From an uncultured bacterium (GTDB lineage Bacteria > Acidobacteriota > HRBIN11 > JAKEFK01), in assembly GCA_963777505.1 (NCBI GenBank), contig CAVZQN010000008.1:507679-571678 (forward strand): a stretch of DNA of 64,000 bases. Direction: 5' to 3'. The notes under the pieces are model-generated. The model made no database searches, was not told the origin of the DNA, and saw only the letters and a program-made list of their open reading frames with translations. Below are positions 4,388-41,890 of the stretch, piece after piece (position 1 is the stretch's first letter; each line of letters opens with the position of its first letter). Position numbers and translations under genes: made by a program.

Positions 4388-4743
4388 TTGAGCCCGTCTG
4401 CCGACAAGCCCCGGCGCAAATGGGGCTGGATCTTCCTTTTGGCGTTTGTCGTGCAGGCCGCCGTGTTCGTCGTTCTGATCGGCCAGATCGCGCGCCAGAT
4501 GCCGTCGGCGACAGTCCTCGTGGAAAATCCGGCAGACGCCGAGCCCGCAGGGCGCGCCTGCGCCGGCTGCAGTTGAGCGCCGGCGGATGCCGAGCGGCTG
4601 CGGCTCAAACTTGCGCTGTTGCTGCTCGCCGCCAGCACCTGTTCGATTGTCACGCTGGCCGGCGCGCTGATCGGGCTGCGCAGGCCCCCGCCGGCGCAAC
4701 CGGACACGGACGACGATCCGCCGCCGGCAGCGAGCCGGAGTGA
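4388..4743 (+). CDS. hypothetical two-TM membrane protein (frameshifted)
   Basis: KWGWIFLLAFVVQAAVFVVLIG in one frame, then LRLKLALLLLAASTCSIVTLAGALIGL in another. Confidence 0.45.
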
Positions 4744-4749
4744 GCCGCG

Positions 4750-6320
4750 CTAGTACGAATAGTCCAGCGCCTTGTACATGACGTTCTGGTGGATCATGTG
4801 CGGCCGCGCGCCCTTCAGGCGCTTGTTGGTCACCATGTGCAGGCCGACGTTCATCACCGGAATCCAGAGATGATTTTCGCTGATGCGCTTCTGCGCGAGG
4901 CCGTAGTACTTCGCGCGGTCCTTCTCGGTCAGCGCCGAGCGGCCGGCCTTCAGCCATTCGTCGGTCTGCGGATCGTTCCAGAACATCCGGTTCGGCACCG
5001 GGATGTTCGATGAATCGAAATAGTAGTTCAGAAGATCGCCGGCCGAGAGGTAGGAGTACGTCACGGTCCAGAGTTCGTAGTCGAGTTCGGCCATCTTCGC
5101 CGGCGCAATCGTCGAGTCGAAGCCGATGATGTTCCAGTCGACGCCGATCTGGCGCATGTAGCCCTGGATCGCCTCGGACACGCGCGGACCGTACGAGACC
5201 GCGGTGAAGTAGACCTTCGGCGCGAGCTTCACGCCGTCCTTGTAGCGGAAGCCGTCGGGGCCCATCTTCCATCCGGCCTCGTCGAGCAGCTTCTTCGCCC
5301 GCTCGACGTCCTCCTTGACGTGCGTCATGCCGTCTTCGTAGTCGAGCGCCGCCGGATCGACGAAGGTGTAGGCGGGGTCGGCGTGGCCCTGCACCGTGCT
5401 CTTGACGATGTCGGCGCGCTTGATGGCGATGCTCATCGCCTCGCGCACGCGCGGATCGGCGACCAGCGGCCGGTTGGTCTTGAAGCCGAAGTAGTTGAGC
5501 AGGTGCATCGGTTTCGCCTGCTGCACCTGCAGCATCGGCGCCTTGCTGACCTGATCGAGGAATTGCAACGGCATGTTGTGGGTGATGTCGAAACTGCCGC
5601 TCATCATCGCCGCGACGACGGGCAGAGTCCTCGGGCACGATGGTGATGACCATCTTCTCGAATTTGACCGGACCCTTGTTCTTGTACATCGACGGGCCCC
5701 ACTTGTAGGCGTCGTGCCGTTTGAGCACCGTCTGCGTGCGCGGCTTGCCAGGACTCGAAACACCACGGACCGGTGCCGTCGATCGCCTGCGTGCCGTAGT
5801 CCTTGCCGTGCTTCTCCACGCTCTCCTGATTGTGGATCGCCATGCTGAAGCTCGAGAAGTTGAGCATCAGGTCGGAGTAGGGCTCGTTCAGCTCGTACTC
5901 GACGGTGTAGGGGTCGGGGGTGCGCAGGTCCTTCACGTTGCCGGCGCGCCATTTCAGCGGCGCCTTGGTGGCCGGATCGAGCAGGCGCTTGAAGCTGTAG
6001 ACCACGTCGGCGGAGGTGAACTTCTTGCCGCTAGCAGAACTGCACGTCGTCGCGCAGCTTGAAGGTGTAGGTCTTGCCGTCCTCGCTGATGGTCCAGGAT
6101 TTGGCGAGATAGGGAATGACGGTCCGGCCGTCCCAGTCGAGCGCGACCAGCGTGTCGAGGATCATGTTGGTGACGTCGGCGGTCGGCGCCCAGGTGGTGC
6201 GATGGCCGTCGAAGTGCGGCGCGTCGAGCGACTTCATCACCTTCAGCGTCTGCGCCTGCGCGGTCGAAGCCGCACAGGCCAGCATCGCCGTCGCCGCAAT
6301 CCCTTCGCGATCCCGCGCAT
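4750..6320 (-). CDS. ABC transporter substrate-binding protein, family 5 (peptide/nickel; frameshifted)
   Basis: Signal peptide (..ASTAQA), PYLAKSWTISEDGKTYTFKLRDDV, DGTGPW and VREAMSIAI. GGGAGA RBS before the ATG at 6320. Confidence 0.85.
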
Positions 6321-6772
6321 CGTCGTCTCCCTTTACGTTCTTATTGAATTCTCCGTACTTCCAGGTCGCCAGTTGGACGTCGCATGCGAAACGCGCTGAG
6401 GCCCGAAGACCTCGCGGCAGCGATCATCTCGATGATTTGTATGCGTCTGCGTCAGCCCACTGCGGGCTTTCGGGACCGGTCAGGCAATGGATGTGCTTCC
6501 ACCCCACGCGTATCACTCCCGGAACAGGCGCTGACAAGTCTTGCGCTTCCATGGCCCGTCGCCGAAAGCTTGCAGCCTCACCCCGTTGGCGTCAAGGATG
6601 CGATCGCGTTGCGGTGCCGCAGGCTGTCGCGATCTGACACCTGGAAGCTGGCAGGATCACAGCCGTGCCCTGCGGCGCGACGCTTGGTCTGCTTCCGTAC
6701 AATGCGCCTGCACTGTGCTGTGGTGGTGTGGAGTGCGGCGACGCGAGTAGATCGCAGCGCGGCTAAGCCACC

Positions 6773-7415: not shown

Positions 7416-8316
7416 TCACACCGCCCAGGACGGCAGCGGCTGCATGCGCTGCTTGATCCACGTCAGCAGGCTTTGCACCGCGGCACGGCGGATCTTGTTG
7501 GTCGGAATCAGCGCCTTCAGCCACAGCTCCGGCACCGGATAGTCCGGCAGCAAGGTTTGCAGCTGGCCGGCTTCGATCGCCGGCCGGGCGATGTAGCGCG
7601 CCACCATGGCGATGCCGAGGCCGCGGCAGGCGGCGCTCTGCAGGATCTGGCTGTCGTTGGCGGAGAAGCGCGAGCGCACGTCGACGTTGATCAGCCCGCG
7701 CGGGCTTTCGAACGACCAGGTCGAACCGGTGGTCTGGAAGGTCAGGCAGTCGTGGCCGATCAGGTCGATCGGATGTTTCGGTTCGCCCGCGCGCGTCGAT
7801 GTAGGCGGGCGCGGCGCACAGGACGCGCGGGTAGGGCGACAGCGGCTCGTCGATCACGTTGGCGTAGGACGCGGGCATCGCGCCGATGGCGATGTCGAAA
7901 TCCTCTTCCACCGGGTTGACCGAGCGGTCGATCAGCACGAGGTCGATGGCGATGCCGGGATGGGCGACCTGGAAGTCGTTCAGGATTTCGCCGAAGTTGA
8001 GGATCGCCAGCGTCGTCGGGCATTTGATCCGCAACTGGCCCTCGATCCGGTCCGTGGCGCTGACGCGGCGCCGTTGATGGCGTCCTCGACGTCGCCGACG
8101 ATGGTCTGGTAGCGCGGGAAGTAGCGCTCGCCGGTTTCCGTCAGCGACAGCTTGCGCGTCGAGCGCACGAACAGCTGCGCGCGCATCTGGTCTTCCAGGC
8201 GGTTGATGCGCTTGACGATCACGGATGGGGCAACGCCAAGCTCGCGCGCGGCGGCCGAAAAGCTCCCGGCCCGGGCCGTGGTGAGAAAAGCCTTTATATT
8301 CAGAAGTGTAGTTCAC
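7416..8316 (-). CDS. LysR-family transcriptional regulator (frameshifted)
   Basis: GSFSAAARELGVAPSVIVKRINRLEDQMRAQLFVRSTRKLSLTETG HTH plus a CrgA-like substrate-binding domain. Confidence 0.9.
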
Positions 8317-8318
8317 AT

Positions 8319-8444
8319 GCCTTTCTCCAATCGAGAAAGCTGAGTTGTCCCGCGTTCCTGCGGCAATCCGGCATCGACCGGTCTGGCCGCGGAACTATCC
8401 TTGTTCCCAATAGCTTAGCCGCCTTTCTCGTTTCGAGAAAGCTG
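8319..8444. promoter_or_regulatory. two LysR-type operator palindromes (CTTTCTC-N5-GAGAAAG)
   Basis: GCCTTTCTCCAATCGAGAAAGCTG at 8319-8342 and GCCTTTCTCGTTTCGAGAAAGCTG at 8421-8444. Each contains T-N11-A and lies in the divergent lysR/operon intergenic region. Confidence 0.7.
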
Positions 8445-8521
8445 TTGGTCACTGATGCTGCTTTTTCGCCCATTTCGACGCGGACTAGCATCGCGCCAAG
8501 AACAAAGACGGGAGAAGGCGC

Positions 8522-9843
8522 ATGGCGGAAGCGGAAGGCACCCGGATCGTCCGCAGGCCGGGCAAGGGCGCGGTGCGCAAGGTCGAAGGCGACATCTGCG
8601 TCGTCGGCGCCGGCGCCGCCGGCGCCTCCGCGGCGATCGAGGCGGCCCGGCTCGGGCGCAAGGTGATCCTGGTCGACGGCATGCCGGCGCTGGGCGGGCA
8701 GGCGGTGAATTCGATCATCGGCACGTTCTGCGGCCTCTTCTCCAACGGCACGCACGGCTACCAGTTCACCCACGGCATCGCCGACGACATCATGGAGACG
8801 CTCGGCAAGAACAGCGAGCAGCTCTATTACCGCAACGGCCCGCACACGACGGTCGTCTACTACGACGAGGTCGCGCTCGGCCGCTGGATCGAGCGCACGG
8901 TGCGCGAGCTCGGCATCACCGTGATCGTCGGCGCGGTGATGCGCGATGTGCGATGTCGAAGGCCGGCGCATCAAGACGCTGCATCTGGCCACGCGCTACG
9001 GCGACGTCGACGTGCAGGCGACCGGCTTCGTCGACGCCAGCGGCGACGCGGCGCTGGTCTATCAGGCGGGCTTTGCCTGCCGCGAGCCGACCAGCCCGAT
9101 CTACGGCACGCAGATGGTGATGCTCGAGAACATCGACGAGGCGAAGCATCCGACGCGCGAGGAAATCCCGGCGAAGATGAAGGAGAAGGGCGACAAGTAC
9201 GGCCTCGTCCGCCGCGAGGGACTTGGCTTCGTCATTCCCGGCCGCGGCGTCGCCGCGATGAACATGACCCATGTGGAGACGCCGCTCGATCCGATCGAAG
9301 CCTCGATCAAGGGCGATTGACGGCAAGGACCAGGCCGACCGCGCGGTCGAGTTTCTGCGCAACGAGTTCCCCGAGTGCTTTCGGCAAGGCGCGCATTCGC
9401 GCCTACGGCTTTCCCGGCATCCGCCAGACCCGCTGGATCGTCGGCCGCCAGCAGCTCACGGTCGACGACGTGCGCGCCGGCACGAAGTTCCCGGACGCCG
9501 TTGCGCGCACCGCCTGGCCGATCGAATTGCACGACCACTCCGACGGCCATCACTGGCAGACCTTCGGCGATCGACCATGTGCATTATGTGCCATTGGCAG
9601 CATGATCCCGGCCGACGGCGACAACGTCGTCGCCGCCGGCCGCTGCATCGATGCGCGACTGCGCGGCGCTGTCGAGCGTGCGGGTGATGGGCCCGTGCAT
9701 GGCGATGGGCGCGGCGGCCGCCAATGCGCTCGATCTTGCCGGCACCGGCAGCGTGCACCAGATCGACATCCAGGCGCTGGCGCAAGCGCGTGCACGACAA
9801 TATCGAGACCAAACACATGCGATGGCCGAGCAAGGCGGCCTGA
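8522..9843 (+). CDS. FAD-dependent oxidoreductase (FAD_oxidored family; frameshifted)
   Basis: DICVVGAGAAGASAAIEAARLG, LGGQAV, FVDASGDA, GIRQTRWIVG, NVVAAGRCID and RVMGPCMAMGAAAA. Confidence 0.85.
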
Positions 9844-9857
9844 CGGCAACGCGTGAC

Positions 9858-11138
9858 ATGAAACTGACCGACGACGAGAAAGAGATGCTCGACGGCGTCC
9901 ACGGCCGCGCGAAAGCGCGGGCGATGGACCTGCTCGTGCGCTACGGCGAGGCGCTCGGCGCCGAGCGGCTGGTGGAGACCAACAATGTCGCCGGCGCCTT
10001 CAATGCCTCGACGCCGTCGGTGCGCGAACTTGTCGAAGAAGGGCTTCGATGCGGTCTATTCGGAATTCAATCTCGACAGCGCGGAAGTGGTCGAGGTGCC
10101 GAAGATGGTCGCCCACACCTGCCAGCTGATCACCGGCATCGACAACGCCAACTGGCGCATGCAGGGCATTCCGGACGATCTCGCCGAGCAGCAGAAGCGC
10201 GGCGAGGAATTCTTCGGCAGCCGCGGCATCAACATGTTCGCGACCTGCACGCCCTATCAGGTCGGCAATGTGCCGGTGAAGGGCGAGCATTGCGCCTGGA
10301 TGGAATCCTCCGCCGTCGTCTATTGCAACTCGGTGCTCGGCGCGCGCACCAACACCGAGGGCAAGGAGAGCACCGGCGCCGCGGCGCTCACCGGCCGCAT
10401 TCCCTACTGGGGCTATCACATCAAGGAGAACCGGCGCGGCACCCATCTCGTCGAGGTGGACATCGACGTCGACGACATCATGGACTGGGGCCTGCTCGGC
10501 TACTACCTCGGCGAGATCGTCGACGACGAGATCCCGGTGCTCGACCGGCCGCTACAAGCAGCCGAGCCTGATCAAGCTGAAGCATTTTGGTGCGGCGGCG
10601 GCATCGTCCGGCGGCGTCGAGATGTACCACATCCCCGACATCACGCCGGAAGCGCGCGACGGTCGAGGAAGCGTTCGGCGGCAATCCGGTGCGCGGCATC
10701 GTCCGTTATGGCGAGAAGGAGCGGCGCACAGCTTACGAGAATCTGAACTGCGCCACGCGACCGCAACGTCGATTTCGTCATGCTCGGCTGCCCGCACAAT
10801 TCCATCGACCAGGTCTGGCTGATCGCGTCGCTGCTCGACGGCCGCAAGATCAGCGCCAATACCGAGCTCTGGGTGCATACGCCGCGCGGCGCTGCGCGAG
10901 GTCGCCGATCGCAACGGCTACACGAAGATGATCATGGACGCCGGCGGCCATGTCATGAGCGACACCTGTCCGGCGATCTCGCGCGCACATGCCGAAGGGC
11001 ACCAAAGTGGTCGCGACCGATTCGGCCAAGCAGGCGCATTATCTGCCGGCCATCACCGGCGTGTCGGCCTGGTTCGGCTCGGTCAAGCATTGCGTCGAGG
11101 CGGCGGTCAGCGGCCGCTGGGACGGAGGCCTGCGATGA
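9858..11138 (+). CDS. aconitase X catalytic (large) subunit, DUF521 (frameshifted)
   Basis: MKLTDDEKEMLDG, ATCTPYQVGN, WMESSAVVYCNSVLGARTN, LGCPH, SDTCP and TDSAKQAHY. Confidence 0.88.
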
Positions 11139-11582
11139 GCGAGACGCTCGTGCGCAAGGACCAGACGAAAATCGTGCTGCGCGGGCGCAAGGTCGTCGGC
11201 GGCTGCGCCGAGGGCGAGGCGATCGTCACCCGCGACACGATCTCCGGCTGGGGCGGCATCAACGAGCGCGACGGCACCGTGATCGAGCGCCGGCACGAAC
11301 TGCGCGGCCAGAGCTTCAAGGACAAGGTCCTGGTGTTTCCCGGCGCCAAGGGCTCGTCCGGCTGGTCGGCCTATTTTCACATGGCGCGGCTGAACGGCGC
11401 GTCGCCGCGGGCGATGATCTTCAACAAGATGACGACCAAGGTCGCGCTCGGCGCCGTGGTCACGCACGCGCCGGCGATGACGGAGCTGGATCAGGATCCG
11501 CTCGCAGGTGATCGAGACCGGCGACTGGGTCAAGGTCGATGCCGACAATGGCATCGTCGAAATCACCAAGCGTCGCGGCTGA
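11135..11582 (+). CDS. aconitase X swivel (small) subunit, DUF126
   Basis: GCAEGEAIVTRDTISGWGGI...KVLVFPGAKGSSGWS...TGDWVKVDADNG. ATGA overlap with the large subunit. Confidence 0.88.
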
Positions 11583-11591
11583 GGCACGGGA

Positions 11592-13343
11592 ATGTCGGAG
11601 CAGACGGCAGGCCGGCTGACGGCGAGGGGACTGGAGGGCCCGCAGCTCACCGATCGCCTGCGGCGCTGCTGCGCGGCCGCAATCTGGCGGTGCTGGCGCT
11701 GCTGCTGTTGCTCGGCTTCCTCACCGTCTATCCGATGTCGATGCTGCTCTATGGCAGCCTGCACTCGACGCCACCGGGCGCTGCTGGCGTATTCAATCTC
11801 GACGGCTACCGGGCAGATCATGACCACGCACAATCTGGTCGTGCTGCTCAATACGATCGGCATTTCCTTTGCAAAGACGGTTCCATCGCTCGCCGTCGCC
11901 ATCTTTCTTGCCTGGATCATCGCCCGTACCGATACGCCGTATCGCGCCGTGCTCGAGGTGATGATCACGCTGCCCTTCTTCGTGCCGCCGATCCTCACCG
12001 CGATGGCCTGGGGCATGCTCGGCAACGTCCAGGTCGGTCTCATCAACCAGACCTGGAAGGCGATCACCGGTTCCGAGACCTCGCCGATCAACGTCTTTTC
12101 CTATGGCGGCGTGATCTGGCACATGTCGCAATACACGACCACGTTCCTGTTCCTGTTTCTGGTCGATGCCTTCCGCGCCATGGATCCCGCGCTCGAAGAG
12201 GCAAGCCGGATGTGCGGCGCGTCGCGCTGGACCACCTTCCGCAGGATCACGCTGTTCCTGCTGCTGCCGGTGCTGACCAGCGGCGTGATGCTGAGCTTCA
12301 TCCGCGGCATCGAGAGTTTCGAGTCGCCGCTGTTCTTCGGCACGCCTGCCGGCATCAAGGTCATCTCCACCGAAATCTACGACTCCATCAGCCAGCGCGC
12401 GGTGCCGAACTATCAGTCGGCGACCGCACTGAGCTTCGTCATCATGGGTCTGATGCTGCTGCTGGTCGTCTGGCAGTGGACGGTGCTGCGCGGCAGGAGT
12501 TTCCAGACCGTCACCGGCAAGGGCTTCAACCCGGGCGTGGTCAAGCTCGGCGCGTGGCGCTGGGCGACGTTTACGTTCTGCCTGCTGTTCTTCTTCGTGA
12601 CCACGGTGCTGCCGGTCGGCCAGCTTGTGGCAGGCTCGTTCTTCAAGTTCTTCGGCTTCTACGGCTGGGACAACCTGACGCTCGAGCACTATCGCGCCGT
12701 GCTCGGCGACAGCGAATTCTGGCGCGCGACCAAGAACACCATGGTGCTCGGCCTGGTCGGCGCCACCGCGACGATGGTGCTCGGCAGCATCGTCGCCTAC
12801 GTCTCCGTGCGCACCACATGGCGCGGCCGGCGCCTGATCGACGCCATCGCCTGGCTGCCATGGATGATGCCCGGCATCGTGCTGGCAATCGGCTTCCTCT
12901 GGGGTTTCGCGATGCTGCCCGCGGCGATTCCGATCTACGGCACGGTCTGGGCGCTGTTCTTCGCCTATCTCGCGCTCGGCACGCCGGTGTCGGTGCGGGT
13001 GATGTCGGGCGCCTACGCGCAGCTTTCCTTCGATCTTGAGGAATGCTCGCGCGTGCATGGCGCGAACTTCTGGCAGACGCTGACGCGCATTCTGGTGGCG
13101 CTGGCCTGGCCGGCGTTCGCGGTCGGCTGGGTGCTGACGTTCTTCGGCATCATGCGCGAACTGTCGGCCTCGATCATGCTCTACACGACCGGCTCGGAAG
13201 TGCTGTCGGTGGTGCTGGTGAAGCGCTGGGTCAACGGGCTTGCGGAAGAGGTCAGCGTGATCGGCCTGATGATGATGGCGCTGGTGATCGTATTCCGCTG
13301 GGTGCAGCTGGTGGTGATCAAGCGGCGGATCAGTACGCTGTGA
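11592..13343 (+). CDS. ABC transporter permease (FbpB/ThiP-type, two BPD domains)
   Basis: Multi-pass membrane protein with EAA loops LEEASRMCGAS and LEECSRVHGAN. N-terminus frameshifted. Confidence 0.9.
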   Translation: MSEQTAGRLTARGLEGPQLTDRLRRCCAAAIWRCWRCCCCSASSPSIRCRCCSMAACTRRHRALLAYSISTATGQIMTTHNLVVLLNTIGISFAKTVPSLAVAIFLAWIIARTDTPYRAVLEVMITLPFFVPPILTAMAWGMLGNVQVGLINQTWKAITGSETSPINVFSYGGVIWHMSQYTTTFLFLFLVDAFRAMDPALEEASRMCGASRWTTFRRITLFLLLPVLTSGVMLSFIRGIESFESPLFFGTPAGIKVISTEIYDSISQRAVPNYQSATALSFVIMGLMLLLVVWQWTVLRGRSFQTVTGKGFNPGVVKLGAWRWATFTFCLLFFFVTTVLPVGQLVAGSFFKFFGFYGWDNLTLEHYRAVLGDSEFWRATKNTMVLGLVGATATMVLGSIVAYVSVRTTWRGRRLIDAIAWLPWMMPGIVLAIGFLWGFAMLPAAIPIYGTVWALFFAYLALGTPVSVRVMSGAYAQLSFDLEECSRVHGANFWQTLTRILVALAWPAFAVGWVLTFFGIMRELSASIMLYTTGSEVLSVVLVKRWVNGLAEEVSVIGLMMMALVIVFRWVQLVVIKRRISTL

Positions 13344-13375
13344 CGAAACAACAAGGGAAGAAACGGGAGGACAAC

Positions 13376-14399
13376 ATGTTCGGCAAGACTCTTCAAGGTG
13401 GCGGCCATTGCCGCGGCTATCGCGGCCTCGGTGATCGGCGTCGCGCGTGCGGCCGATCAGGACATGCCGGCCGACGTCGTCGCGGCGGCGAAGAAGGAGG
13501 GCAAGGTCGCCTTCTACACCTCGTTCCTGGGCGCGAAGGCGCATCTCGACATCATCAAGAGCTTCGAGGCCAAGTACGGCATCACCGTCGAATTGCTCGA
13601 CGTGCGCGCCAGCGACATGACCGAGCGCATCCGCACCGAGCAGACCTCGAAGCGCTATATCGCCGACGTCGTGCAGAACGGCGCGGCGAGCCTCGTGCGG
13701 CAGCAGCGCCAGGGCTACATCCAGAACGCATGGCGGCATCCCCAACGCGAAGAATCTGCTCAAGGATCACCAGGCCAGCGACTTCGGCGTGCCGACCTAC
13801 ATTCTCGGCTACGGCATCCTGATCAACACCAATGCGGTCAAGGGCGCCGACGTGCCGAAATCCTGGCAGGACATCAAGGACCCGAAGTGGAAGGGCAAGA
13901 TCATCTCCGACGATCCGCGCGCGCTGGGCGGCGGCAACGTGATGTTCTCCGCCTTCCAGGACAAGCTCGGCGACGCCTACAACACCGCACTCTCGCAGCA
14001 GGGCTGGTGCTGAGCCGCGACGTCGGCAATGACGAGCGCCGTGTCGCCCGCGGCGAGTATCCGATGCGCATTCCGCAGCTGTTCTCGAACTGGCTGGCGC
14101 TGAAGTCGCTGCCGGTGAAGTTCATCGCGCCGGAAGAGGGCCTGCCCTACATCCGCTTCGATTTCGGCATCCTGACCGGCGCGCCGCATCCGAACGCCGC
14201 GCGCCTGTTCATCAACCACTACCTCAGCGAGCAGGTGCAGACGGCCTACGCGGTTGCGGGACTGATACCGACCGTCGACGGCATTCTCGACAAGGCGGGC
14301 GAGGCGGGTGCCGAACTGAAGGGCATCAAGCTGCTCGGCACCACCGATGTGGACCGGCAGGATACGATGCTCGATCGCGCCAAGCAACTCTATCCGTGA
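13376..14399 (+). CDS. ABC transporter extracellular solute-binding protein (frameshifted)
   Basis: Signal peptide, AAAKKEGKVAFYT, PKSWQDIKDPKWKGKI and APHPNAARLFINH. Confidence 0.88.
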
Positions 14400-14421
14400 T
14401 CTGAAAGGCTGCGAGTAATCG

Positions 14422-15523
14422 ATGACTGCTGTTCTGCTCGAAAACGTCAGCCGCGCCTTCGGCACGGCGCTTGCGGTGGATCGGGTCAACCTGAAGGTCG
14501 AGGCGGGCGAGTTCCTGACGCTGCTCGGCCCGTCCGGCTGCGGCAAGACCACCACGCTGCGCATGATCGCGGGGCTGGAGCAGAACACGACCGGGCGCAT
14601 CACCATCGGCGACGCGGTCGTCAGCGACGCCGATCGCTCGATCTTCGTGGCGGCGGAGCGCCGCCGCCTCGGCATGGTGTTCCAGTCCTACGCGATCTGG
14701 CCGCACATGACGGTGTTCGACAACGTCGCCTATCCCTTGCGCATCCGCCGCCGCCCGCGGCCGAGATCAAGGAGCGGGTGATGAAGACGCTCGGTCTCGT
14801 CGAGATGGAGCAGCTACGCCGAGCGTCCGGCGCCGGCGCTGTCGGGCGGCCAGCAGCAGCGCGTCGCCATTGCGCGCGCGCTGGTGTTCGAGCCCGAGGT
14901 GCTGCTGCTCGACGAGCCGCTGTCGAACCTCGATGCGCGGCTGCGGACGCAGATGGGCGACGAATTCCGCAAGCTGCAGAAGCGGCTCGGCATCACCAGC
15001 CTTTACGTCACGCACGATCAGGAAGAGGCGATGGCGCTGTCCGACCGCGTGGTGGTGATGCAGGGCGGCAAGATCCTGCAGGTCGGCTCGCCGGAAGAAA
15101 TCTATCAGCGGCCCGGCAGCCGCAGCGTCGCCGCCTTCTTCGGTTCGCCCAACCTGCTCGACGCCGAGGTGACGGCGAGCCAGCCGGCGGAGGCCGGCTA
15201 CTTCCGCCTCGACGTCGCCGGCAAGGACTGGCGCGGCCAGTGCCGCGCGGCCGCGCGTCTTTCGCCCGGCACGCGTGTCGGCGTGCTGGTGCGGCCGGAG
15301 ACGATTTCGCTGTCGTCGAACGGCGCGGCCGGCGACGGCCGATGCCATCCGCTGGACGGGCAAGGTGAAGGACATGATTTTCCGCGGCTCGCGCCGTTCG
15401 ATCGCGGTGGAGACGGCGGCGCAAACGCTGCGCGTCGAGGCGCCGTCGCAGCAGCCGGTTGCGGTCGGCGATACCGTCACGCTGACGACGCCGGCGAACA
15501 CCGCCTGGGCGATCGAAGGCTGA
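14422..15523 (+). CDS. ABC transporter ATP-binding protein with TOBE domain (frameshifted)
   Basis: [31 protein letters not shown] and YVTHDQEEA. Confidence 0.92.
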
Positions 15524-15525
15524 AG

Positions 15526-17265
15526 ATGGCCAGAAAGCTTCGCAGCAACGCGGAATACGGCAATGCGCGCTGGGCGACGCGGCGCGCGCTGTGGCGCGCG
15601 CTCGGCCTGACGGACGCGGACTTCGACAAGCCGAAGATCGCGGTGGTGAATTCATCGTCCGATCTGGCGATCTGCTACTCCCATCTCGACGGCATTGCCA
15701 AGCGCATGAAGGAGGCGATCCGCGCCGCCGGCGCCGTCGCCTTCGAGGTGCGCACCACCGCGCCGGCCGACTTCGTCACCTCGTGGGGCCATCGCGGCGG
15801 CTACATCCTCTCCGCGCGCGACCTGATCACCAACGACATCGAGGCGCAGGTCGAGGGCGCGCTGCTCGACGGCATGGTCTGCCTCGCCTCCTGCGACAAG
15901 ACCCCGCCCGGCCAGCTGATGGCCGCGGGACGGCTGAACATCCCGACGCTGATCTTCTGCTGCGGCTACCAGCCGAGCGGCCAGCACAAGGGCCATCTCT
16001 GCGACATCGAGGACGTGTTCGCGACCGCCGGCGGGCTGGCCTTCGGCAAGGTCTCGATCGACGAGATCAAGGAGATGAGCGACGTCGCCATCCAGGGGCC
16101 CGGCGTCTGCGCCGGCATGGGCACGGCCAACACGCTGCATGCCGCCTGCGAGGCGCTCGGCATGTCGCTGCCCGGCTCGACGCCGATCCTCGCCAACAGC
16201 GACAGGATGTGGGAGTTCGTCGAACAGGCGGGCAGGCGCATCGTCGCGATGATCGACGAGGACCTGAAGCCGCGCGACATTCTCACGACCGAGGCGTTCG
16301 AGAACGCGGTGATGGTCATGCTCTGCGTCAGCGGCTCGATCAACTCGGCCAAGCATCTGGCGGCGGTCGCGCAGGAGGCCGGCTGCGACGTCGACGTCTA
16401 CAAGCTGTTCGAAAAATATGCCGACGTCATTCCGCTGCTGACCGCGGTGCGTCCGAACGGCGACGCCACCACCGAAGCCTTCGAGGCGGCCGGCGGCACG
16501 CAGGGCGTGATGAAGCAGCTGCAGCAGTTCATGAAGACCGGCGCGCGGACCGTCACCGGCAAGACGCTGGCCGAGAATCTCGCGAGCTTCAAGGTGACGG
16601 ACGAGGAGACCATCCGTCCGGTCTCGCGTCCGCTCGGCAAGCATCCGACCATCGTCATGCTGCGCGGCAGCCTCTCGCCGGAAACCAGCATCGTCAAACT
16701 CAGCGTCACCGAGCAGCGCAATCTGCAGCTGCGCGGCCCCGCGGTCGTGTTCGAGAACGCGCTCGACGCCATCAACGGCATCCAGGACGGCAAGGTCAGC
16801 GCCGGCCAGGTGGTCGTCGTGCGCGGCCTCGGCCCGAGGGGAACGCCCGGCATGGGCGTCGCGTCGGCGGTGGTCTTCGCCGTGCTCGGCGCGGGGCTCG
16901 CCGGCAAGGTCGCCGTCGTCACCGATGGTCAGCTTTCGGGCCTCACCAATGTCGGCATCACCGTCGCCGAGGTTGCGCCCGAAGCGGCGGCCGGCGGTCC
17001 GATCGGCCTGGTCGAGAACGGCGACATCATCGCCATCGACGTCGAGAAGCGGACGGCCGATCTTGAAGTCTCCGAGCCGAAGCTCGCGCGCCGTCGCAGG
17101 AACATGACGCGCTGGGACAAGACCGACGAGCGCGGCTGGCTGGCCATGTACCGCGAACTGGTCGAGCCGGTCGGCAAAGGCCGATTCTCCGGCGTTGAGC
17201 GCGCCTCTCGCTTGCGGGACGACAGCGTTAACGGTGCGTCAATAAACGCGGTTACCAAAGCCTGA
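15526..17265 (+). CDS. dihydroxy-acid dehydratase family (IlvD/Edd) enzyme, divergent
   Basis: [35 protein letters not shown] and [21 protein letters not shown]. Confidence 0.88.
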
Positions 17266-17332: not shown

Positions 17333-19052
17333 GTGATGCGAGTTCCCGTTGCAGCTGCTTTAGTTCTCGTTGCCGGGCTCGGAACGGCGGGCGCGGCCGA
17401 TCCGCCCGTGTTCATTCCGCGCGAGCGTGCCACCGCCAGCAGGTCTGGACCTGGACCGGGTTCTACGGCGGCACCCACAGCGGCGGCGGCTTCGGTCTCA
17501 CGCAACTTCAGGGGCGCAGGGCCGTCGATCTACGGCGACACCGTCCGCAGCCCGATGGCGATTGGCGGGGCGCAGCTCGGCTACAACTGGCAGATGCCCG
17601 GCACAGCTTTCGTGTTCGGCGTCGAAGCCGACGCCAGCATCCTCACGTCCGACGGAACCAACACCTGCCTCGCGTCGTCCGGCTCGATCCTCTCGGCGAA
17701 CTGCCGGGTCAGCCAGACGTTTCGCCGGCAGCGTCACCGGACGCGCGGGATACGCAGCCGGGGCTGGCGGGCGCACGCTGCTGTTCGTCAAGGGCGGCGG
17801 GGCTGCGCTGCATGAGACGATCGATATTACCACCAATGGCGGTCCGTACCCGCCGATCACGACGGCCACGACGGGCACGCGGTTCGGCTGGACGGCGGGC
17901 GCAGGCGTCGAGCGTGCGCTGACGCCGACCTGGTCGCTGAAGTTCGAATACGACTACATCGGACTTCGGCGGCGCGGAGATCGCGACCCCGGTGACGTTC
18001 CGGCAAGCTGGTCCCGCTTGCAAATGCCTACGTCGCGCTGCCCGGCGGCACCGTCGACGCGCGGCAGAGCATGCACGCGATCAAACTCGGCGTGAACGCG
18101 AAACTCGGCGAGGATTCGCGCGCCATCTGGCGTCCCTTCGACGGCGACTATCGCCTGCGTGGCGCGACGGAGGACGTGCGTCTCGGCGGTCGAGGTCGAG
18201 ATCGGCACGCGCGCTTGGTACAGCTTTGGCCGTCATCAGAAAGACCTTGGCGGCTCGACGCTGCCGTTCGACCAGAATTTCCTCGTGTCGCGGCTGACCT
18301 ACGACAGCAGCGCCTGGTCCGGTGAGGCGTTCGGCCGCGTCGATACGACTGAAGGCGTGTTCGTCAAAGGATTTGCCGGCGGCGGCAGGCTGGTCTCCGG
18401 CAAGATGCACGACGAAGACTGGCTGCTCGCCGGCAACACCATTCCGTATTCGAACACGCTGTCCGATCCGGTCAAGGGTTCGCTTGGCTACGCGGCGCTC
18501 GACGTCGGCTACGCGATGTTCAGGGGTCCGAGCGCAAAGGTCGGCGGCTTCTCGGCTACAGCCTACCTCAGCGACAGCTATTCCGCCTTCGGCTGTTCGC
18601 AGATCGTCCTGCCGAACGCTGGTGTGCGCGCCGGCGATGCCGAACACGACTCTCGTGATCACGCAGGACAATGTGTGGCACGCGGCCCGCGTCGGCCTCA
18701 GCGGCGTGGCTACACTTGGCGGCGGACTCACGCTGCAGCGGTCGATGCCGCATGGCTGCCGCTGGTGAGCTTTCGCGGCGTGGACAATCATGTGCTGCGC
18801 ACCGACGTCGCCGACACGGTATCGAAGGAAAGCGGCAAGGGGCAGGGCGTCCAGCTCGAAGCCCTGGTTTCCTACGCCTTCGACCCGTCGTTCAGCGTCG
18901 GCGCCGGCGGACGCTACTGGTCGATGTGGACGGACACGGACGCCTTGGTCAACATCTTCGGAACGGCGTGTCCCTGCCAGACGCTGCCGTCGCGGACCGA
19001 GCGCTACGGCGCATTCGTGCAGGCTGCGTACAGGTTCGGCGTGCCGAAATAG
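17333..19052 (+). CDS. outer-membrane beta-barrel protein: Omp25/RopB-like domain fused to an omptin-like domain (frameshifted)
   Basis: Signal peptide, WTWTGFYGG, GGAQLGYNWQ and GWTAGAGVERALTPTWSLKFEYDY. A second barrel contains MHDEDW and VDNH and ends in AYRF. Confidence 0.75.
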
Positions 19053-24468: not shown

Positions 24469-26162
24469 ATGCAAAAGGCGGCCAGTTACGTCAGCGGAAC
24501 ATCGGATGCGCCGCTGCTCGGCATGACGATCGGAGAGGCGCTCGATCGGGCGCGGCTGCAGTGGGGCGAGCGCGAAGCGCTGGTGTCGCCGAGTCACGGC
24601 GTGCGGCTGAGCTGGCGCGAGTTCGCCGACCAGGTCGATGCGGTTGCGGCGGGCTTTCTCGCGCTCGGCCTCGAGCGTGGCGACCGCATCGGCATCTGGT
24701 CGCTGAACCGGCCGGAATGGACGCTGACGCAGTTCGCCGCCGCCAAGGCCGGGCTGATCCTGGTGACGATCAATCCGGCCTACCGCCTGAACGAACTGGA
24801 GTTCGCGCTCGCCAAGGTCGGCTGCAGCGCGCTGGTCACGGCGACCGCGTTCAAGACCAGCAACTACATGGAGATGATCAACACGCTTGCGCCGGAACTG
24901 GCGCGCTGCGCGCCGGGCGAACTCAAGGCGGCAAAGCTGCCGAAGCTCCGCACCGTCATCCAGATCGGCGGGCCGAAGCAGCCCGGCACGATCGCCTTCG
25001 AGGACGTGGCGGGCATGGGGCGTGATCGCCATCGCGAGATGCTGGCCGGCTTGTCGAAGAGCCTGCAGTTCGACGATCCGATCAACATCCAGTTCACCAG
25101 CGGCACCACCGGCTCGCCGAAGGGCGTGACGCTGACGCACCACAACATTCTCAACAACGGCTATTTCGTCGGCCGCGCCATGGCGCTGACCGAACGCGAC
25201 CGGATGTGCATCCCGGTGCCGCTCTATCACTGCTTCGGCATGGTGATGGGCAACCTCACGGCCGTGACGCATGGCTGCAGCGATGGTCTTTCCCGGCGAG
25301 GGCTTCGATCCGCTGGTGACGCTGACGACGATCGAGCAGGAGAAGTGCACGACGCTCTATGGCGTGCCGACGATGTTCATCGCCGAACTGGAGCATCCGG
25401 AGTTTTCGCGCTTCAACCTGTCGTCGCTGCGCACCGGCATCATGGCCGGCGCGCCGTGCCCGATCGAGGTGATGCGGCGGGTGATCGACAAGATGAACAT
25501 GCGCGACGTGACGATCGCCTACGGCATGACCGAGACCAGTCCGGTCAGCTTCCAGACCGGCATGAGCGACTACGGTGGAACGGCGCGTGTCGACGGTCGG
25601 CCGCGTTCATCCGCACATCGAGGTGAAGGTCGTCGATCTCGAGGGCAAGGTCGTGCCGCGCGGCGAGACCGGTGAACTGTGCACGCGCGGCTACAGCGTC
25701 ATGCTGGGCTACTGGGACGAACCGCAGAAGACCGCCGAGGTGCTGGACGACGGCGGCTGGATGCACACCGGCGATCTCGCCACCATCGACGACGAGGGCT
25801 ACGGCAACATCGTCGGCCGCATCAAGGACATGGTGATCCGCGGCGGCGAGAACCTCTATCCGCGCGAGATCGAGGAGTATCTCTACAAGCATCCGAAGGT
25901 CCAGGACGCCCAGGTGTTCGGCGTCGCCGACGACCGCTATGGCGAGGAGCTGTGCGCCTGGATTCGCGTCAAGCCCGGCGAGACGCTGACCGCGGAGGAG
26001 GTGCGTGCCTTCTGCCAGGGACAGATCGCCCACAACAAGATCCCGCGCTACATCGAGTTCGTCGCCGAGTTTCCGATGACCGTGACCGGCAAGGTGCAGA
26101 AGTTCATCATGCGCGACGTGGTCGAGCAGAAGCTCGGGCTGAAGCGGGCGAAGACGGCCTGA
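24469..26162 (+). CDS. AMP-binding acyl-CoA synthetase (frameshifted)
   Basis: [46 protein letters not shown] and TGKVQKF. Confidence 0.92.
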
Positions 26163-32678: not shown

Positions 32679-32819
32679 GCGTCTACTCCTGGGACCCGCA
32701 TCAGGGAAACTTAGTCGGAGTATCACGCCGGGTGATACCGCAGTGCAAGCGCTCGCGCTTGTGCCGGGGTCGCGCGTTTCGTAAAATCACCCATCAGCCA
32801 ACGTTCACAATCCGAGGAA

Positions 32820-34106
32820 ATGCCAATGAACATGCAGATTGCTCACACGCCGCGGCGCACCAGCTACGGGCTCACTCCCGGTGATGAAATGAACGATCTG
32901 CGCATGTCCGACCAGGTTCGGCCGCTTTATGATCATGTCCGCAGGTTCATCAAGGAGACGGTCGACCCGATGGCCGCCGAATTCGCGCGACTCGGGCGCG
33001 ACAAGACCGACCGCTGGAGCTTTGCGCCCGGACAACTTGAGATCCTGCAGAAGGCCAAGGACAAGGCGAAGACGGAAGGGCTGTGGAACTTCTTCCTGCC
33101 GGACGCGGAGACCGGCGAAGGCCTCAAGAACCTCGATTACGCCTACATCGCCGTCGAACTCGGCAAGAGCCCGATGGCGTCCGAGACCATGAATTGCGCC
33201 GCGCCCGATACCGGCAACATGGAGGTGCTGGAGCGGGTCGGAACCAAGGAGCAGAAAGAGAAGTGGCTGAAGCCGCTGCTCAATGGCGAAATTCGCTCCG
33301 CCTACGTCATGACCGAGCCGAATGTCGCTTCGTCGGACGCCAAGAACGTCTCGACCACGGCAAAGCTTGTCGGCGACGAGTACGTGATCAACGGTGAGAA
33401 GTACTATATCTCCGGCGCAGGCGATCCGCGCTGCAAGATCATGATCGTGATGGTGAAGACCAACCCGGACGCGCCGCCGAGCAAGCAGCAGTCGCAGATA
33501 CTCGTCCCCAAGGACACGCCTGGTGTCCATATCCTCGGGCCGATGCATGTGTTCGGACACGATCACGCGCCGCGCGGCCACATGCATATTCGCTTCGACA
33601 ATGTGCGGGTGCCGAAGGAGAACATGCTGCTGGGCGAGGGGCGTGGCTTCGAGATTTCACAGGTGCGGCTCGGCCCAGGCCGAATCCATCACTGCATGCG
33701 CACGATCGGCAAGGCGGAGAAGGCGCTCGACATGATGGTCACGCGTGGTCTCACGCGAGTTGCCTTCGGCAAGCAGATCGCCCATCTCGGCGGCAACCTG
33801 CAGATCATCGCGCAGGCGCGCTGCGAGATCGAGGCGATGCGGCTGATGGTGCTGAAGGCGGCCAAGGCGATGGACGTGCTCGGCAACAAGGAAGCGCGCG
33901 TCTGGGTCAGCATGGTCAAGGCGATGGTGCCGGAGCGGGCGTGCAAGATCATCGACCAGGCGATCCAGATGCACGGCGCCACCGGCATCTCGCAATGGAC
34001 CCCGCTGGCCGACCTCTACACCGACGTTCGCCACCTGCGCTTCGCCGATGGTCCGGATGAGGTGCACTGGATGGTGGTCGGCCGTCACGAACTGAGCATG
34101 ATGTGA
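32820..34106 (+). CDS. acyl-CoA dehydrogenase
   Basis: Intact ORF with NCAAPDTGNMEVL, MTEPNVASSDA, RLGPGRIHHCMR and RFADGPDEVH. Confidence 0.93.
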   Translation: MPMNMQIAHTPRRTSYGLTPGDEMNDLRMSDQVRPLYDHVRRFIKETVDPMAAEFARLGRDKTDRWSFAPGQLEILQKAKDKAKTEGLWNFFLPDAETGEGLKNLDYAYIAVELGKSPMASETMNCAAPDTGNMEVLERVGTKEQKEKWLKPLLNGEIRSAYVMTEPNVASSDAKNVSTTAKLVGDEYVINGEKYYISGAGDPRCKIMIVMVKTNPDAPPSKQQSQILVPKDTPGVHILGPMHVFGHDHAPRGHMHIRFDNVRVPKENMLLGEGRGFEISQVRLGPGRIHHCMRTIGKAEKALDMMVTRGLTRVAFGKQIAHLGGNLQIIAQARCEIEAMRLMVLKAAKAMDVLGNKEARVWVSMVKAMVPERACKIIDQAIQMHGATGISQWTPLADLYTDVRHLRFADGPDEVHWMVVGRHELSMM

Positions 34107-40056: not shown

Positions 40057-40673
40057 ATGCCCGAAACGCCCCATCAATCGAAGTCGAGGTTGCTCGACGC
40101 GACGCTGACGGTGGTGCGGCGAAAGGGTTATTCCGCAACCCGCGTCGAGGACGTCTGCGCCGAGGCCGGCGTGACTAAGGGCAGCTTCTTCCATCACTTC
40201 GACAGCAAGGATGAACTGGCGCTGGCCGCCGCCGAGCGCTGGCGCGAATTCGCCAACACGCTATTCGCGGAAGCCGACTACAACCGCATTGACGATCCGC
40301 TGGACCGCCTGCTCGGTTACATCGATCACCGCAGGTCGATGTTCGATGGCGACGTCGCCAAATACACCTGCTTCGCCGGCACGGTGATCCAGGAGGCGTA
40401 CGCGACGCATCCGCCGCTTCGCGACGCCTGTGCGCGGGCAATCGCCGACAACGCGGATTATCTTGCGCCGATGATCAGCGCCGCCATGCGCAAGTATCGC
40501 GTCAAGGGCAGCCTGGAGCGCCAAGGGGTTGGCGCTGCACACGCAAGGCGGTTCTGCAGGGTGCCTTTATTCTTGCGAAGGCGGGGCAGGTGAAGTTTGC
40601 GACCGAGAGCGTCGACCACCTTCGACGCTACATCGAATTGCTGTTCCGTGCAGAGAGGAGCCCACGCGCATGA
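40057..40673 (+). CDS. TetR/AcrR regulator (NemR-like; frameshifted near 3' end)
   Basis: GYSATRVEDVCAEAGVTKGSFFHHFDSKDEL HTH and TCFAG. Confidence 0.88.
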
Positions 40674-41890
40674 ATTTGTCCTATCGCTGGCTGCTGGTGG
40701 CTATCGGCGCGCTGATGACCTGTGTCGCGGTCGGCGCGATGTTCTCGCTCGCCGTGTTTCTGGAACCGATCGCGACGCAAACCGGCTGGTCGCGCACCGG
40801 CATCTCCAGCGCAATGACGCTGGATTTTCTGGCGATGGGCGTTGCGTCGTTCGGGTGGGGATGGGCCAGCGATCGCTTCGGCCCGCGTCCTGTGGTGCTC
40901 GCAGGTTCCGCGCTGCTCGGCCTTGGCCTCGTGCTTGCGAGCCGCGCGTCCTCGCTCACGGAATTCCAGCTGACCTACGGCATCCTCGTCGGAATCGCGT
41001 CGGGCGCCTTCTTCGCGCCGCTGATCTCGACCACCACCATGTGGTTCGACACCCATCGCAGTCTGGCGGTGTCGCTGGTCTCGGCCGGTGTCGGCGTTGC
41101 GCCGATGACGGTCTCTCCGTTCGCGCGCTGGCTGATCTCGAACTACGACTGGCAGTTCGCAATGATGGCGATCGGCATCGCCGCCTGGGTGCTGCTGATC
41201 CCGGCGGGCATGCTTGTGCGCAAACCCTCGGCCGTTACACCCGCTGCCGCGCCCGGTGCGGCGGCGGTCACGCCGGCGGGCGAGGGCGGCATGCCGCTCG
41301 CCGCGGCCTTCCGCTCACCGCAGTTCATCGTGCTGACGCTGACCTTTGCGCTGTGCTGTTCGGCGCATTCGGGCCCGATCTTCCACATGGTGAGTTACGC
41401 GATGATCTGCGGCATTCCGGCCATGGCCGCTGTCAGCATCTACAGCGTCGAGGGACTGGCGGGCCTGGGTGGACGTCTGCTGCTCGGCATTCTCGCCGAC
41501 CGCTTCGGTGTCAAGCGCGTGCTGATCGGCGGACTTCTCGTGCAGGCGCTGGCGATCGGCAGCTACCTTTTCATCAATCGTCTCGGCGAGTTCTACGCGA
41601 TCGCGATCGTGTTCGGCACGGCCTATGGCGGCGTGATGCCGCTCTATGCGGTGCTTGCGCGCGAGTATTTCGGCCAGGCGATCATGGGCACGATCCTCGG
41701 CGCGGCGACGATGGTGTCGTGCATGGGCATGGCGTTCGGGCCCTGGGCCGGCGGCTGGGTGTTCGACAATCTCGGCAGCTACGCCTGGCTCTATATCGGT
41801 TCGTTCGCCGTCGCCTTCGGCGCCGTGCTGATCGCGCTGGCCTTCCCGCCGCAGCCGTCGCGGATGGCGGCACAGTTGCAGGCCGTCTGA
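40670..41890 (+). CDS. MFS transporter
   Basis: About 12 TM helices with WGWASDRFGPR and GILADRFGVKR motifs. Confidence 0.9.
   Translation: MNLSYRWLLVAIGALMTCVAVGAMFSLAVFLEPIATQTGWSRTGISSAMTLDFLAMGVASFGWGWASDRFGPRPVVLAGSALLGLGLVLASRASSLTEFQLTYGILVGIASGAFFAPLISTTTMWFDTHRSLAVSLVSAGVGVAPMTVSPFARWLISNYDWQFAMMAIGIAAWVLLIPAGMLVRKPSAVTPAAAPGAAAVTPAGEGGMPLAAAFRSPQFIVLTLTFALCCSAHSGPIFHMVSYAMICGIPAMAAVSIYSVEGLAGLGGRLLLGILADRFGVKRVLIGGLLVQALAIGSYLFINRLGEFYAIAIVFGTAYGGVMPLYAVLAREYFGQAIMGTILGAATMVSCMGMAFGPWAGGWVFDNLGSYAWLYIGSFAVAFGAVLIALAFPPQPSRMAAQLQAV

Follow-up and report, generated by a model that had tools for sequence, protein, structure and literature searches.

A frame-broken copy of a widespread flavoprotein-aconitase X gene cluster, with an IlvD/Edd-like dehydratase, in an acidobacterial contig

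What is the role of a gene cluster in which a split aconitase X (AcnX) is accompanied by a flavoprotein, an importer and a second dehydratase, and why are seven of its eight genes interrupted? The locus in question lies at 7.4-17.3 kb of a stretch of 64,000 nucleotides (nt), about 65% G+C, from an uncultured member of the Acidobacteriota (contig CAVZQN010000008.1); the whole stretch is referred to here as the window. Taken as a whole, the best explanation, which we hold with moderate confidence, is that the locus is one copy of a widespread catabolic module controlled by a LysR-type regulator, and that its broken frames are errors of the record. Gene borders and frame changes were determined by frame-aware alignment of the DNA to intact proteins encoded at a related locus, L002. 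All eight units that a first-pass annotation had listed were recovered by Pfam and by this alignment, in the same order and with borders within a few bases. The Pfam matches are LysR_substrate, FAD_oxidored, AcnX, AcnX_swivel, two copies of BPD_transp_1, SBP_bac families, ABC_tran, and ILVD_EDD_N and ILVD_EDD_C. The features are listed below, with the number of residues identical to the L002 protein where it was counted.

7416-8318, minus strand: lysR-type regulator, divergent from the other genes; 257/298 identical to L002 LysR; ATG start and TGA stop checked
8322-8440, no strand assigned: control region with two palindromes, read in the sequence
8522-9843, plus strand: flavin adenine dinucleotide (FAD)-dependent oxidoreductase (PF12831), the flavoprotein of the text; 390/441 identical
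9858-11138, plus strand: AcnX-L, the large catalytic subunit of aconitase X (PF04412); 397/424 identical
11135-11582, plus strand: AcnX-S, the small swivel subunit (PF01989); 135/150 identical; ends checked
11592-13343, plus strand: fused two-domain ATP-binding cassette (ABC) permease with two BPD_transp_1 domains; 485/582 identical
13376-14399, plus strand: periplasmic substrate-binding protein (SBP) of the Fe3+/AfuA/aminoethylphosphonate cluster, matching SBP_bac_11/8/1/6; 267/338 identical
14422-15523, plus strand: ABC ATPase, PotA/FbpC-like, with a partial ABC_tran match; 303/363 identical
15526-17265, plus strand: IlvD/Edd-family (IlvD-like) dehydratase with complete ILVD_EDD_N and ILVD_EDD_C; the sole intact gene of the eight

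The plus-strand genes are spaced by no more than 40 nt, and the stop codon of AcnX-L and the start codon of AcnX-S share the bases ATGA. Relatives of AcnX were collected by a scan of genome contigs, one genome per species, which gave 598 candidate stretches and at least 570 loci with an AcnX relative. Unless stated otherwise, locus counts refer to the best 80 of these at least 570 loci, and 51 of the 80 have full 10-kb flanks. The arrangement is not a product of chance because the same colinear gene set is present and intact in L002 and the core recurs in 60-76 of the 80 loci. The genes divergent from lysR had been described as six tightly spaced functional units. Their spacing and order stand but they are not functional as written, since seven of the eight genes of the locus are frame-broken.

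A total of 25 frame-shifting events was obtained from the alignment. Those at 8530 (flavoprotein N-terminus) and 17185 (IlvD-like C-terminus) are doubtful because they are located at the extreme ends of the proteins, and 23 firm events are left after setting them aside: 18 of +1, four of -1 and one of +2, a density of 2.4 per kb. As a control, the same alignment was applied to four other loci, with 12 genes of 65-85% identity in all, and it returned no internal event and three within the last 10 residues. The firm events comprise two in lysR, seven in the FAD oxidoreductase gene, six in AcnX-L, one in AcnX-S, two in the permease gene, two in the SBP gene and three in the ATPase gene, with none in the IlvD-like gene. 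Their positions are as follows.

About 7788 (+1) and about 8054 (+2), minus strand: lysR; Pfam LysR_substrate spans only part of the open reading frame (ORF)
8951, 9315, 9379, 9569, 9656 and 9783 (+1) and 9597 (-1), plus strand: FAD oxidoreductase; profile positions 1-117 and 372-414 are in different ORFs
10035, 10543, 10658, 10758, 10888 and 10985 (+1), plus strand: AcnX-L; no in-frame stop
11504 (+1), plus strand: AcnX-S; the AcnX_swivel_put profile is matched over positions 1-79 of 80
11658 (-1) and 11816 (+1), plus strand: permease; the ORF stays open, and the frame is wrong from one event to the other, over residues about 24-76 (first membrane helix)
13725 (+1) and 14002 (-1), plus strand: SBP, from the L002 alignment
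14761 (-1), 14814 (+1) and 15334 (+1), plus strand: ATPase, from the L002 alignment

The frames were also followed with a plot of third-position G+C (GC3), hidden Markov model segmentation, Pfam searches of each ORF, and tblastn with a close AcnX homologue, P0001. The GC3 signal switches frame inside genes and the segmentation agrees. The AcnX profile is matched in three ORFs, over positions 1-44, 72-229 and 295-333, and P0001 aligns to AcnX-L in frames +3/+1/+3. At the level of single bases, comparison with L002 shows clean extra bases with flanks that otherwise match. For the permease, the peptide in the right frame is present for the out-of-frame part in the overlapping ORF 10928-13039. An uninterrupted AcnX reading frame is thus missing from the window, with six +1 events in the gene for the large subunit and one in that for the small subunit. 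These breaks were overlooked in the first-pass annotation, and only the IlvD-like gene forms one intact ORF.

Do the breaks belong to the organism or to the record? They are most likely, and in our judgement very probably, sequence or assembly errors of the record and not biology, and the source organism probably has an intact operon. Errors are preferred over decay because the corrected frames are without stops, there is no excess of amino-acid change relative to the sister loci, and the same +1 pattern is found elsewhere in the window. The corrected frames have zero in-frame stops and are 79-94% identical to L002 in amino-acid sequence. Trees were built from a concatenation of three proteins whose genes account for 14 of the 23 events, the flavoprotein, AcnX-L and AcnX-S, and 65 of the 80 loci were kept for having at least 93% coverage of all three. 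With 17 rows, the end branch of the window is 0.064 and the path to the intact sisters L001/L002 is 0.057-0.063; in a larger tree of 66 rows the end branch is 0.062 and the path to the sisters is 0.062-0.070. From the ratio of indels to substitutions that is generally expected, fourteen neutral indels should bring many more substitutions than are seen.

The direction and distribution of the events were also considered. Of the 22 single-base events, 18 are insertions and four are deletions (p = 0.004). Mutation in bacteria is usually biased toward deletion, and the observed excess of insertions runs opposite to this. The spread of events among the eight genes shows no significant heterogeneity (p = 0.075). 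Outside the operon, the gene for an acyl-CoA (coenzyme A) synthetase at 24469-26159 (plus strand), 520/562 identical to its nearest relative P0121, has +1 events at 25276 and 25571. The gene is kept across Bradyrhizobium, Nitrobacter and Rhodopseudomonas, and both inserted bases are T and stand outside homopolymers. The frame model found 20 further switches without a nearby stop outside the operon, and 15 of the 20 are +1. The record of L001, the closest public relative, has +1 events of its own at 12513 (permease) and 15342 (ATPase), at sites that differ from those of the window; L002 has none. One of the L001 insertions is a G between C and C, the same C/G context as in the window.

Three observations weigh against attributing the breaks to the record. 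The ratio of nonsynonymous to synonymous substitution rates (dN/dS) is 0.16-0.18 between the window and L001/L002 compared with 0.055 between L001 and L002, which could mean relaxed selection. Most of the insertions are outside homopolymers, unlike the best-known error mode of long reads. Finally, the IlvD-like gene has no event where 4.2 are expected (P = 0.015), and selection on a gene that is still used would give the same result. The raised dN/dS and the sparing of the IlvD-like gene are what would be seen if the operon were a truly decaying pseudogene cluster, with real frameshift mutations, in a genome in the course of shedding accessory catabolic genes. The same holds for the breakage of seven of the eight operon genes, and for the broken genes and the long segments with a non-coding score that occur across the window. 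We regard such decay as unlikely. It would have to leave no excess of amino-acid change on the window branch despite 14 shifts in 3 kb, and to proceed without in-frame stops, large deletions or insertion elements. It would also have to favour insertions, 18 to four, against the deletion bias of bacteria, and to strike a family-conserved gene, that of the acyl-CoA synthetase, at 92.5% identity to its nearest relative. The higher dN/dS may be due to synonymous sites that are near saturation at about 92% GC3. As a test of decay, dN/dS was set aside as unreliable for sequences this divergent and this high in GC3, and the comparison of branch lengths was used in its place.

It could also be imagined that the cell itself copes with the frame changes, by means of four-base codons or programmed +1 frameshifting. 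Most events are +1, and in four genes (lysR, AcnX-L and those for the permease and the SBP) the shifts add up to a return to the original frame. Such decoding is extremely improbable, however, as the 18 plus-strand +1 sites (the doubtful 8530 included) present 12 different four-base words, which are also found 2 to 84 times in these genes where they are read normally. The sites have no stop or slippery run and the L002 orthologues are in plain frames. Both forms of decoding were rejected, since there is no common word at the +1 sites.

Several other features of the window and of its relatives were observed. Pfam matches that are split over frames or cut off elsewhere in the window include SBP_bac_5 (in three pieces), a fragment of an outer-membrane beta-barrel, adh_short, NAD_binding_2 and Amidohydro_2, and 4731-6423 (minus strand) and 17370-18095 (plus strand) are among the sites of such genes. 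Intact genes of 1-2.3 kb are also present, for a sulfatase (689-2983), an acyl-CoA dehydrogenase (32736-34103) and a major facilitator superfamily (MFS) protein (40475-41887). A gene for a class-V aminotransferase-like or cysteine-desulfurase-like protein is located 3' of the IlvD-like gene in L001 (17509-18681) and L002 (17829-19001), and such a gene is also found in L078 (12542-13816). The gene of L001 and L002 was not found in the window by tblastn, and a fragment of an outer-membrane protein follows the IlvD-like gene instead. L002 has a repeated intergenic element with the translation CGVLDRPVKPG(D/E)D at 15922-16135, in the gap between the ATPase and IlvD-like genes, and at about 7445-7530, beside lysR. 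There is no such insert between the matching genes of the window.

How widely is this set of genes shared? The locus had been called an orphan operon, a description that does not survive the at least 570 loci that encode an AcnX relative. A homologue of the flavoprotein is encoded within 10 kb of AcnX in 68 of the 80 loci (44 of the 51 with full flanks) and directly upstream of AcnX in 60 (38 of 51). AcnX-S is adjacent to AcnX-L in 76 of the 80, and within 10 kb in all 51 loci with full flanks. An IlvD-like protein of at least 50% identity is encoded within 10 kb in 37 loci, 28 of them within 5 kb (23 of 51), and a related LysR in 36 (26 of 51). All five genes, for LysR, flavoprotein, AcnX-L, AcnX-S and the IlvD-like enzyme, are found together in 15 of the 80. 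The linkage to IlvD-like genes extends across Alpha-, Beta- and Gammaproteobacteria and Acidobacteriota, and the tree requires that it was gained or lost at least 11-12 times. The core is a gene for a PF12831 flavoprotein followed directly by split AcnX, with IlvD-like and LysR genes in about half of the loci, and the cluster is common to many soil and marine bacteria. The proposal that these genes belong together, which would have fallen if they were not conserved together in other genomes, is borne out for the core by the counts for the upstream flavoprotein, AcnX-S and the IlvD-like enzyme.

The uptake system beside the core is interchangeable between loci. The ABC importer of the window had been regarded as dedicated to the pathway. 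It is instead the least conserved part, with a permease and ATPase of the same type in 7 of the 80 loci (the permease in 5 of 51), and its place is taken elsewhere by tripartite ATP-independent periplasmic (TRAP), TAXI-TRAP, tripartite tricarboxylate transport (TTT), MFS or Liv-type systems. Altogether, transporters of six types were seen next to the core. The following counts of transporters near the core come from rough gene calling, in which AcnX-L itself was recovered in only 65 of the 80 loci: TAXI-TRAP in 11 loci, DctPQM in 10-11, TctC in 6 and 5, MFS in 8 and 4, and Liv-type ABC systems in about 10. Genes for a TauD-family dioxygenase, a GMC oxidoreductase and an amidohydrolase are each found beside the core in 8 loci. 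A TauD/TfdA dioxygenase gene and TAXI-TRAP genes are co-linear with the core in L034, L036, L038, L040, L041, L053, L058 and L060, whose hosts belong to Phyllobacteriaceae, Paracoccaceae, Halomonadaceae and Saccharospirillaceae; L038 adds an aldehyde dehydrogenase. These loci may point to an initial hydroxylation or oxidative cleavage of the substrate.

Which type of AcnX is encoded? The large subunit is matched by three PF04412 fragments and the small subunit by a complete and separate PF01989 domain, as expected of a split (Type II) AcnX. AcnX-L is nearly equidistant from the solved types, with E 3e-53 to archaeal TkAcnX (7cnr, the best match in the PDB) and 2e-52 to AtAcnX (7d2r). Alignments to 7cnr, 7cnp and 7d2r and the translations of the window show that the catalytic set is kept, namely the serine of the small subunit, Glu149-Ser150, Lys389 and Tyr393. 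These residues and Cys130, Cys310 and Cys369 are invariant in 27-28 relatives. The three cysteines align to the ligands Cys110, Cys283 and Cys342 of TkAcnX, which is the archaeal-type three-cysteine pattern (Watanabe et al. 2021, PMC8184944). A dehydratase mechanism of the [4Fe-4S] type is expected because the cysteine ligands and catalytic residues are as in TkAcnX. With TkAcnX and ApAcnX (archaeal Type IIb, 7cnr) the AcnX of the locus thus shares two subunits, the three cysteines, the Glu/Ser pair, the lysine, the tyrosine and the small-subunit serine; it differs in its replaced phosphate residues (Phe48 for Ser50), bacterial host and catabolic context. With AtAcnX it shares the fold, the general acid-base residues and Trp35, but it is unfused, Asp203, Thr72 and the Cys-X-Cys ligand are missing from it, and it has Cys310 for At Ser449.

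Could the enzyme then be a cis-3-hydroxy-L-proline (C3LHyp) dehydratase? Of the NCBIfam models, the large subunit matches only the one for this activity, NF051439, and the residue equivalent to Trp35 of AtAcnX is kept. The match scores 247 bits, though, against a cut-off of 700, and the substrate landmarks and a cluster ligand of the C3LHyp enzyme are gone, with Ala45 in the place of AtAcnX Asp203, Gly in that of Thr72 and Pro370 in that of the ligand Cys510. Asp203, Thr72 and Cys510 are given as completely conserved in Type IIa in the passages of Watanabe et al. (2021, PMC8184944) that treat this type. As the locus also has no hydroxyproline genes, a C3LHyp dehydratase is very improbable.

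A bacterial mevalonate-5-phosphate (MVA5P) dehydratase of the modified mevalonate route is equally improbable. The three-cysteine pattern and the best PDB match are those of TkAcnX, but the residues of the phosphate site, as presented in the pertinent part of PMC8184944, are changed: in an ungapped reading of the alignment, Ser50 and Asn53 of TkAcnX correspond to Phe48 and Ser51. Gln89 is the probable counterpart of TkAcnX Asn79, in a part of the alignment that is gapped and uncertain. The locus has no UbiD/UbiX or kinase gene, and the LysR regulator and importers place it in a catabolic context. Eight genes only were found in it by Pfam, which agrees with the earlier statement that no proline epimerase, UbiD/UbiX or mevalonate gene is present.

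The residue comparisons thus support a split AcnX with neither of the two characterised activities, as the first-pass annotation had supposed; the absence of landmark residues and the score of 247 bits against 700 bear this out. Its account of the characterised enzymes, a fused C3LHyp dehydratase and an archaeal split MVA5P dehydratase, was correct as far as it went but incomplete, since split bacterial Type-IIa AcnX proteins have also been characterised as C3LHyp dehydratases, according to the section of PMC8184944 on that type. In the passages of Watanabe et al. (2021, PMC8184944) on classification, subclasses IIc-IIf of Type II, four bacterial subclasses, are said to lack the landmarks of both activities and to await characterisation. 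The AcnX of the locus is like them in being split, bacterial and without the landmarks of C3LHyp or MVA5P dehydratases; those passages of PMC8184944 make no mention of the flavoprotein and IlvD-like enzyme as conserved partners.

Longer relatives of AcnX, looked for as fusions, amounted to two proteins, one with TPR repeats joined to AcnX and the other P0242. In P0242 (798 residues) AcnX-L residues 124-392 are joined directly to residues 33-555 of the IlvD-like protein, and the two genes are adjacent in another genome. P0242 was rejected as a clean Rosetta-stone fusion; both parts are cut down, and it is taken to be a deletion or an assembly join.

None of the three enzymes reached an NCBIfam cut-off, and the flavoprotein matched no NCBIfam model. 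The IlvD-like enzyme scored 511 bits against the 644 required for dihydroxy-acid dehydratase (DHAD) by NF002068 and 488 against the 618 of TIGR00110. It aligns end to end with the plant DHAD 5ym0 (E 2e-96) and has the N and C domains of the IlvD/Edd superfamily with the motifs C..H, CDK, PG.C.GM.TAN and the Ser loop TDG..SG. The cysteines of these motifs are presumably the cluster ligands and the serine of TDG..SG the catalytic one. It is closest to DHAD and is alignable over its full length with DHAD and the sugar-acid dehydratases, cluster cysteines and Ser loop included, but it falls below every NCBIfam cut-off and its loop reads TDG(Q/H)LSGL and not TDGRFSGG. This signature is found in 32 of 34 AcnX-linked IlvD-like copies. 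For the flavoprotein, the predicted structure has a predicted local distance difference test (pLDDT) score of 86, and Foldseek aligned it with template modelling (TM) scores of at most 0.5 to chains of the geranylgeranyl-reductase-like, group-A monooxygenase and HI0933-like kinds. The search of PDB sequences matched little beyond the FAD-binding N-terminal segment, and an Atlas search returned generic names. None of the best 150 profile matches is longer than 476 residues, so no fusion of the flavoprotein was found among them.

How is the operon controlled? The palindrome TTTCTC-N5-GAGAAA occurs twice between the divergent genes, at 8322-8338 and 8424-8440, and is of the T-N11-A type that constitutes the LysR box rule. 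The second copy has a nearly identical counterpart in both L001 and L002, and the first is kept as TTTCT-N-GCGAAAGCTG. From their sequence, the divergent LysR gene and the T-N11-A palindromes have the features of a LysR-regulated divergent operon with putative binding sites. An Rfam scan of the window (1-64000) found no family at the gathering score.

The importer has all three of its components together, an SBP, a fused permease with two BPD_transp_1 domains and an ATPase, each encoded by a frame-broken gene. The nearest solved chain to the SBP, searched with the L002 protein, is 4r72 (E 2e-13), and that to the DctP protein of locus L068 is 5iga (E 4e-18). Both matches were rejected as a source for the ligand, being too remote to name one. 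The PotA and PhnT2 models of NCBIfam match the L002 ATPase below their cut-offs.

What might the module do? It is proposed that the ABC system would import an anionic organic acid and that LysR would switch the operon on by binding to the two palindromes in the divergent control region. The flavoprotein and AcnX would act as a pair at the alpha and beta carbons next to a carboxylate, with the flavoprotein making or removing a C=C bond and AcnX adding or removing water across it. AcnX would do so with an oxygen-labile [4Fe-4S] cluster on the three cysteines and the serine of the small subunit as base. From a vicinal-diol acid, the IlvD-like enzyme would produce a 2-oxo acid for central metabolism. 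The direction and order of the enzyme steps are left free. Precedents for such pairs are succinate dehydrogenase with fumarase and tricarballylate dehydrogenase (TcuA) with aconitase. The likeness of the locus to succinate dehydrogenase/fumarase A and TcuA/aconitase is an analogy, in that a flavin enzyme and an Fe-S hydro-lyase may act in turn on a carboxylate; beyond the FAD-binding fold, the flavoprotein of the locus shows no homology to SdhA or TcuA. Carboxylates are the usual cargo of TRAP and TTT systems, and an organic-acid substrate fits because such systems are found beside the core in other loci. A hydroxylated organic acid is a plausible substrate class. Two points count against the scheme. 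The reaction type of the flavoprotein is a guess, because there is no close solved relative (TM at most 0.5), and 43 of the 80 loci, 15 of them with short flanks, have no IlvD-like gene within 10 kb.

The enzyme families are known and the orphan subclasses of AcnX have been acknowledged in print; the gene set itself is undescribed in the literature searched, in which no paper was found that assigns a function to, or describes, the set of FAD, AcnX and IlvD-like genes. We would put at even odds the proposal that the flavoprotein-AcnX pair and the distinct IlvD/Edd dehydratase form an undescribed route, independent of CoA, for an organic acid, and that this route is encoded by hundreds of genomes from at least two phyla.

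For users of the genome, the record is unusable without correction, as about 2.4 frame errors per kb in the region distort gene calls, family counts and estimates of pseudogenes. For the AcnX family, a conserved partner set has now been fixed for one group, comprising the flavoprotein and often the IlvD/Edd enzyme and LysR. Cultured carriers with intact genes exist, so that the question of function is open to bench work; they are Neorhizobium sp. CSC1952 (L018), Pigmentiphaga kullae K24 (L080), Celeribacter baekdonensis DSM 27375 (L070), Saccharospirillum impatiens DSM 12546 (L053) and Bradyrhizobium liaoningense (L051). Only two reactions have been assigned to AcnX, and four bacterial subclasses are without one, in the account that the relevant parts of PMC8184944 give of the family. 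If the proposed route is true, it would provide the first function for one of the orphan Type-II subclasses of AcnX.

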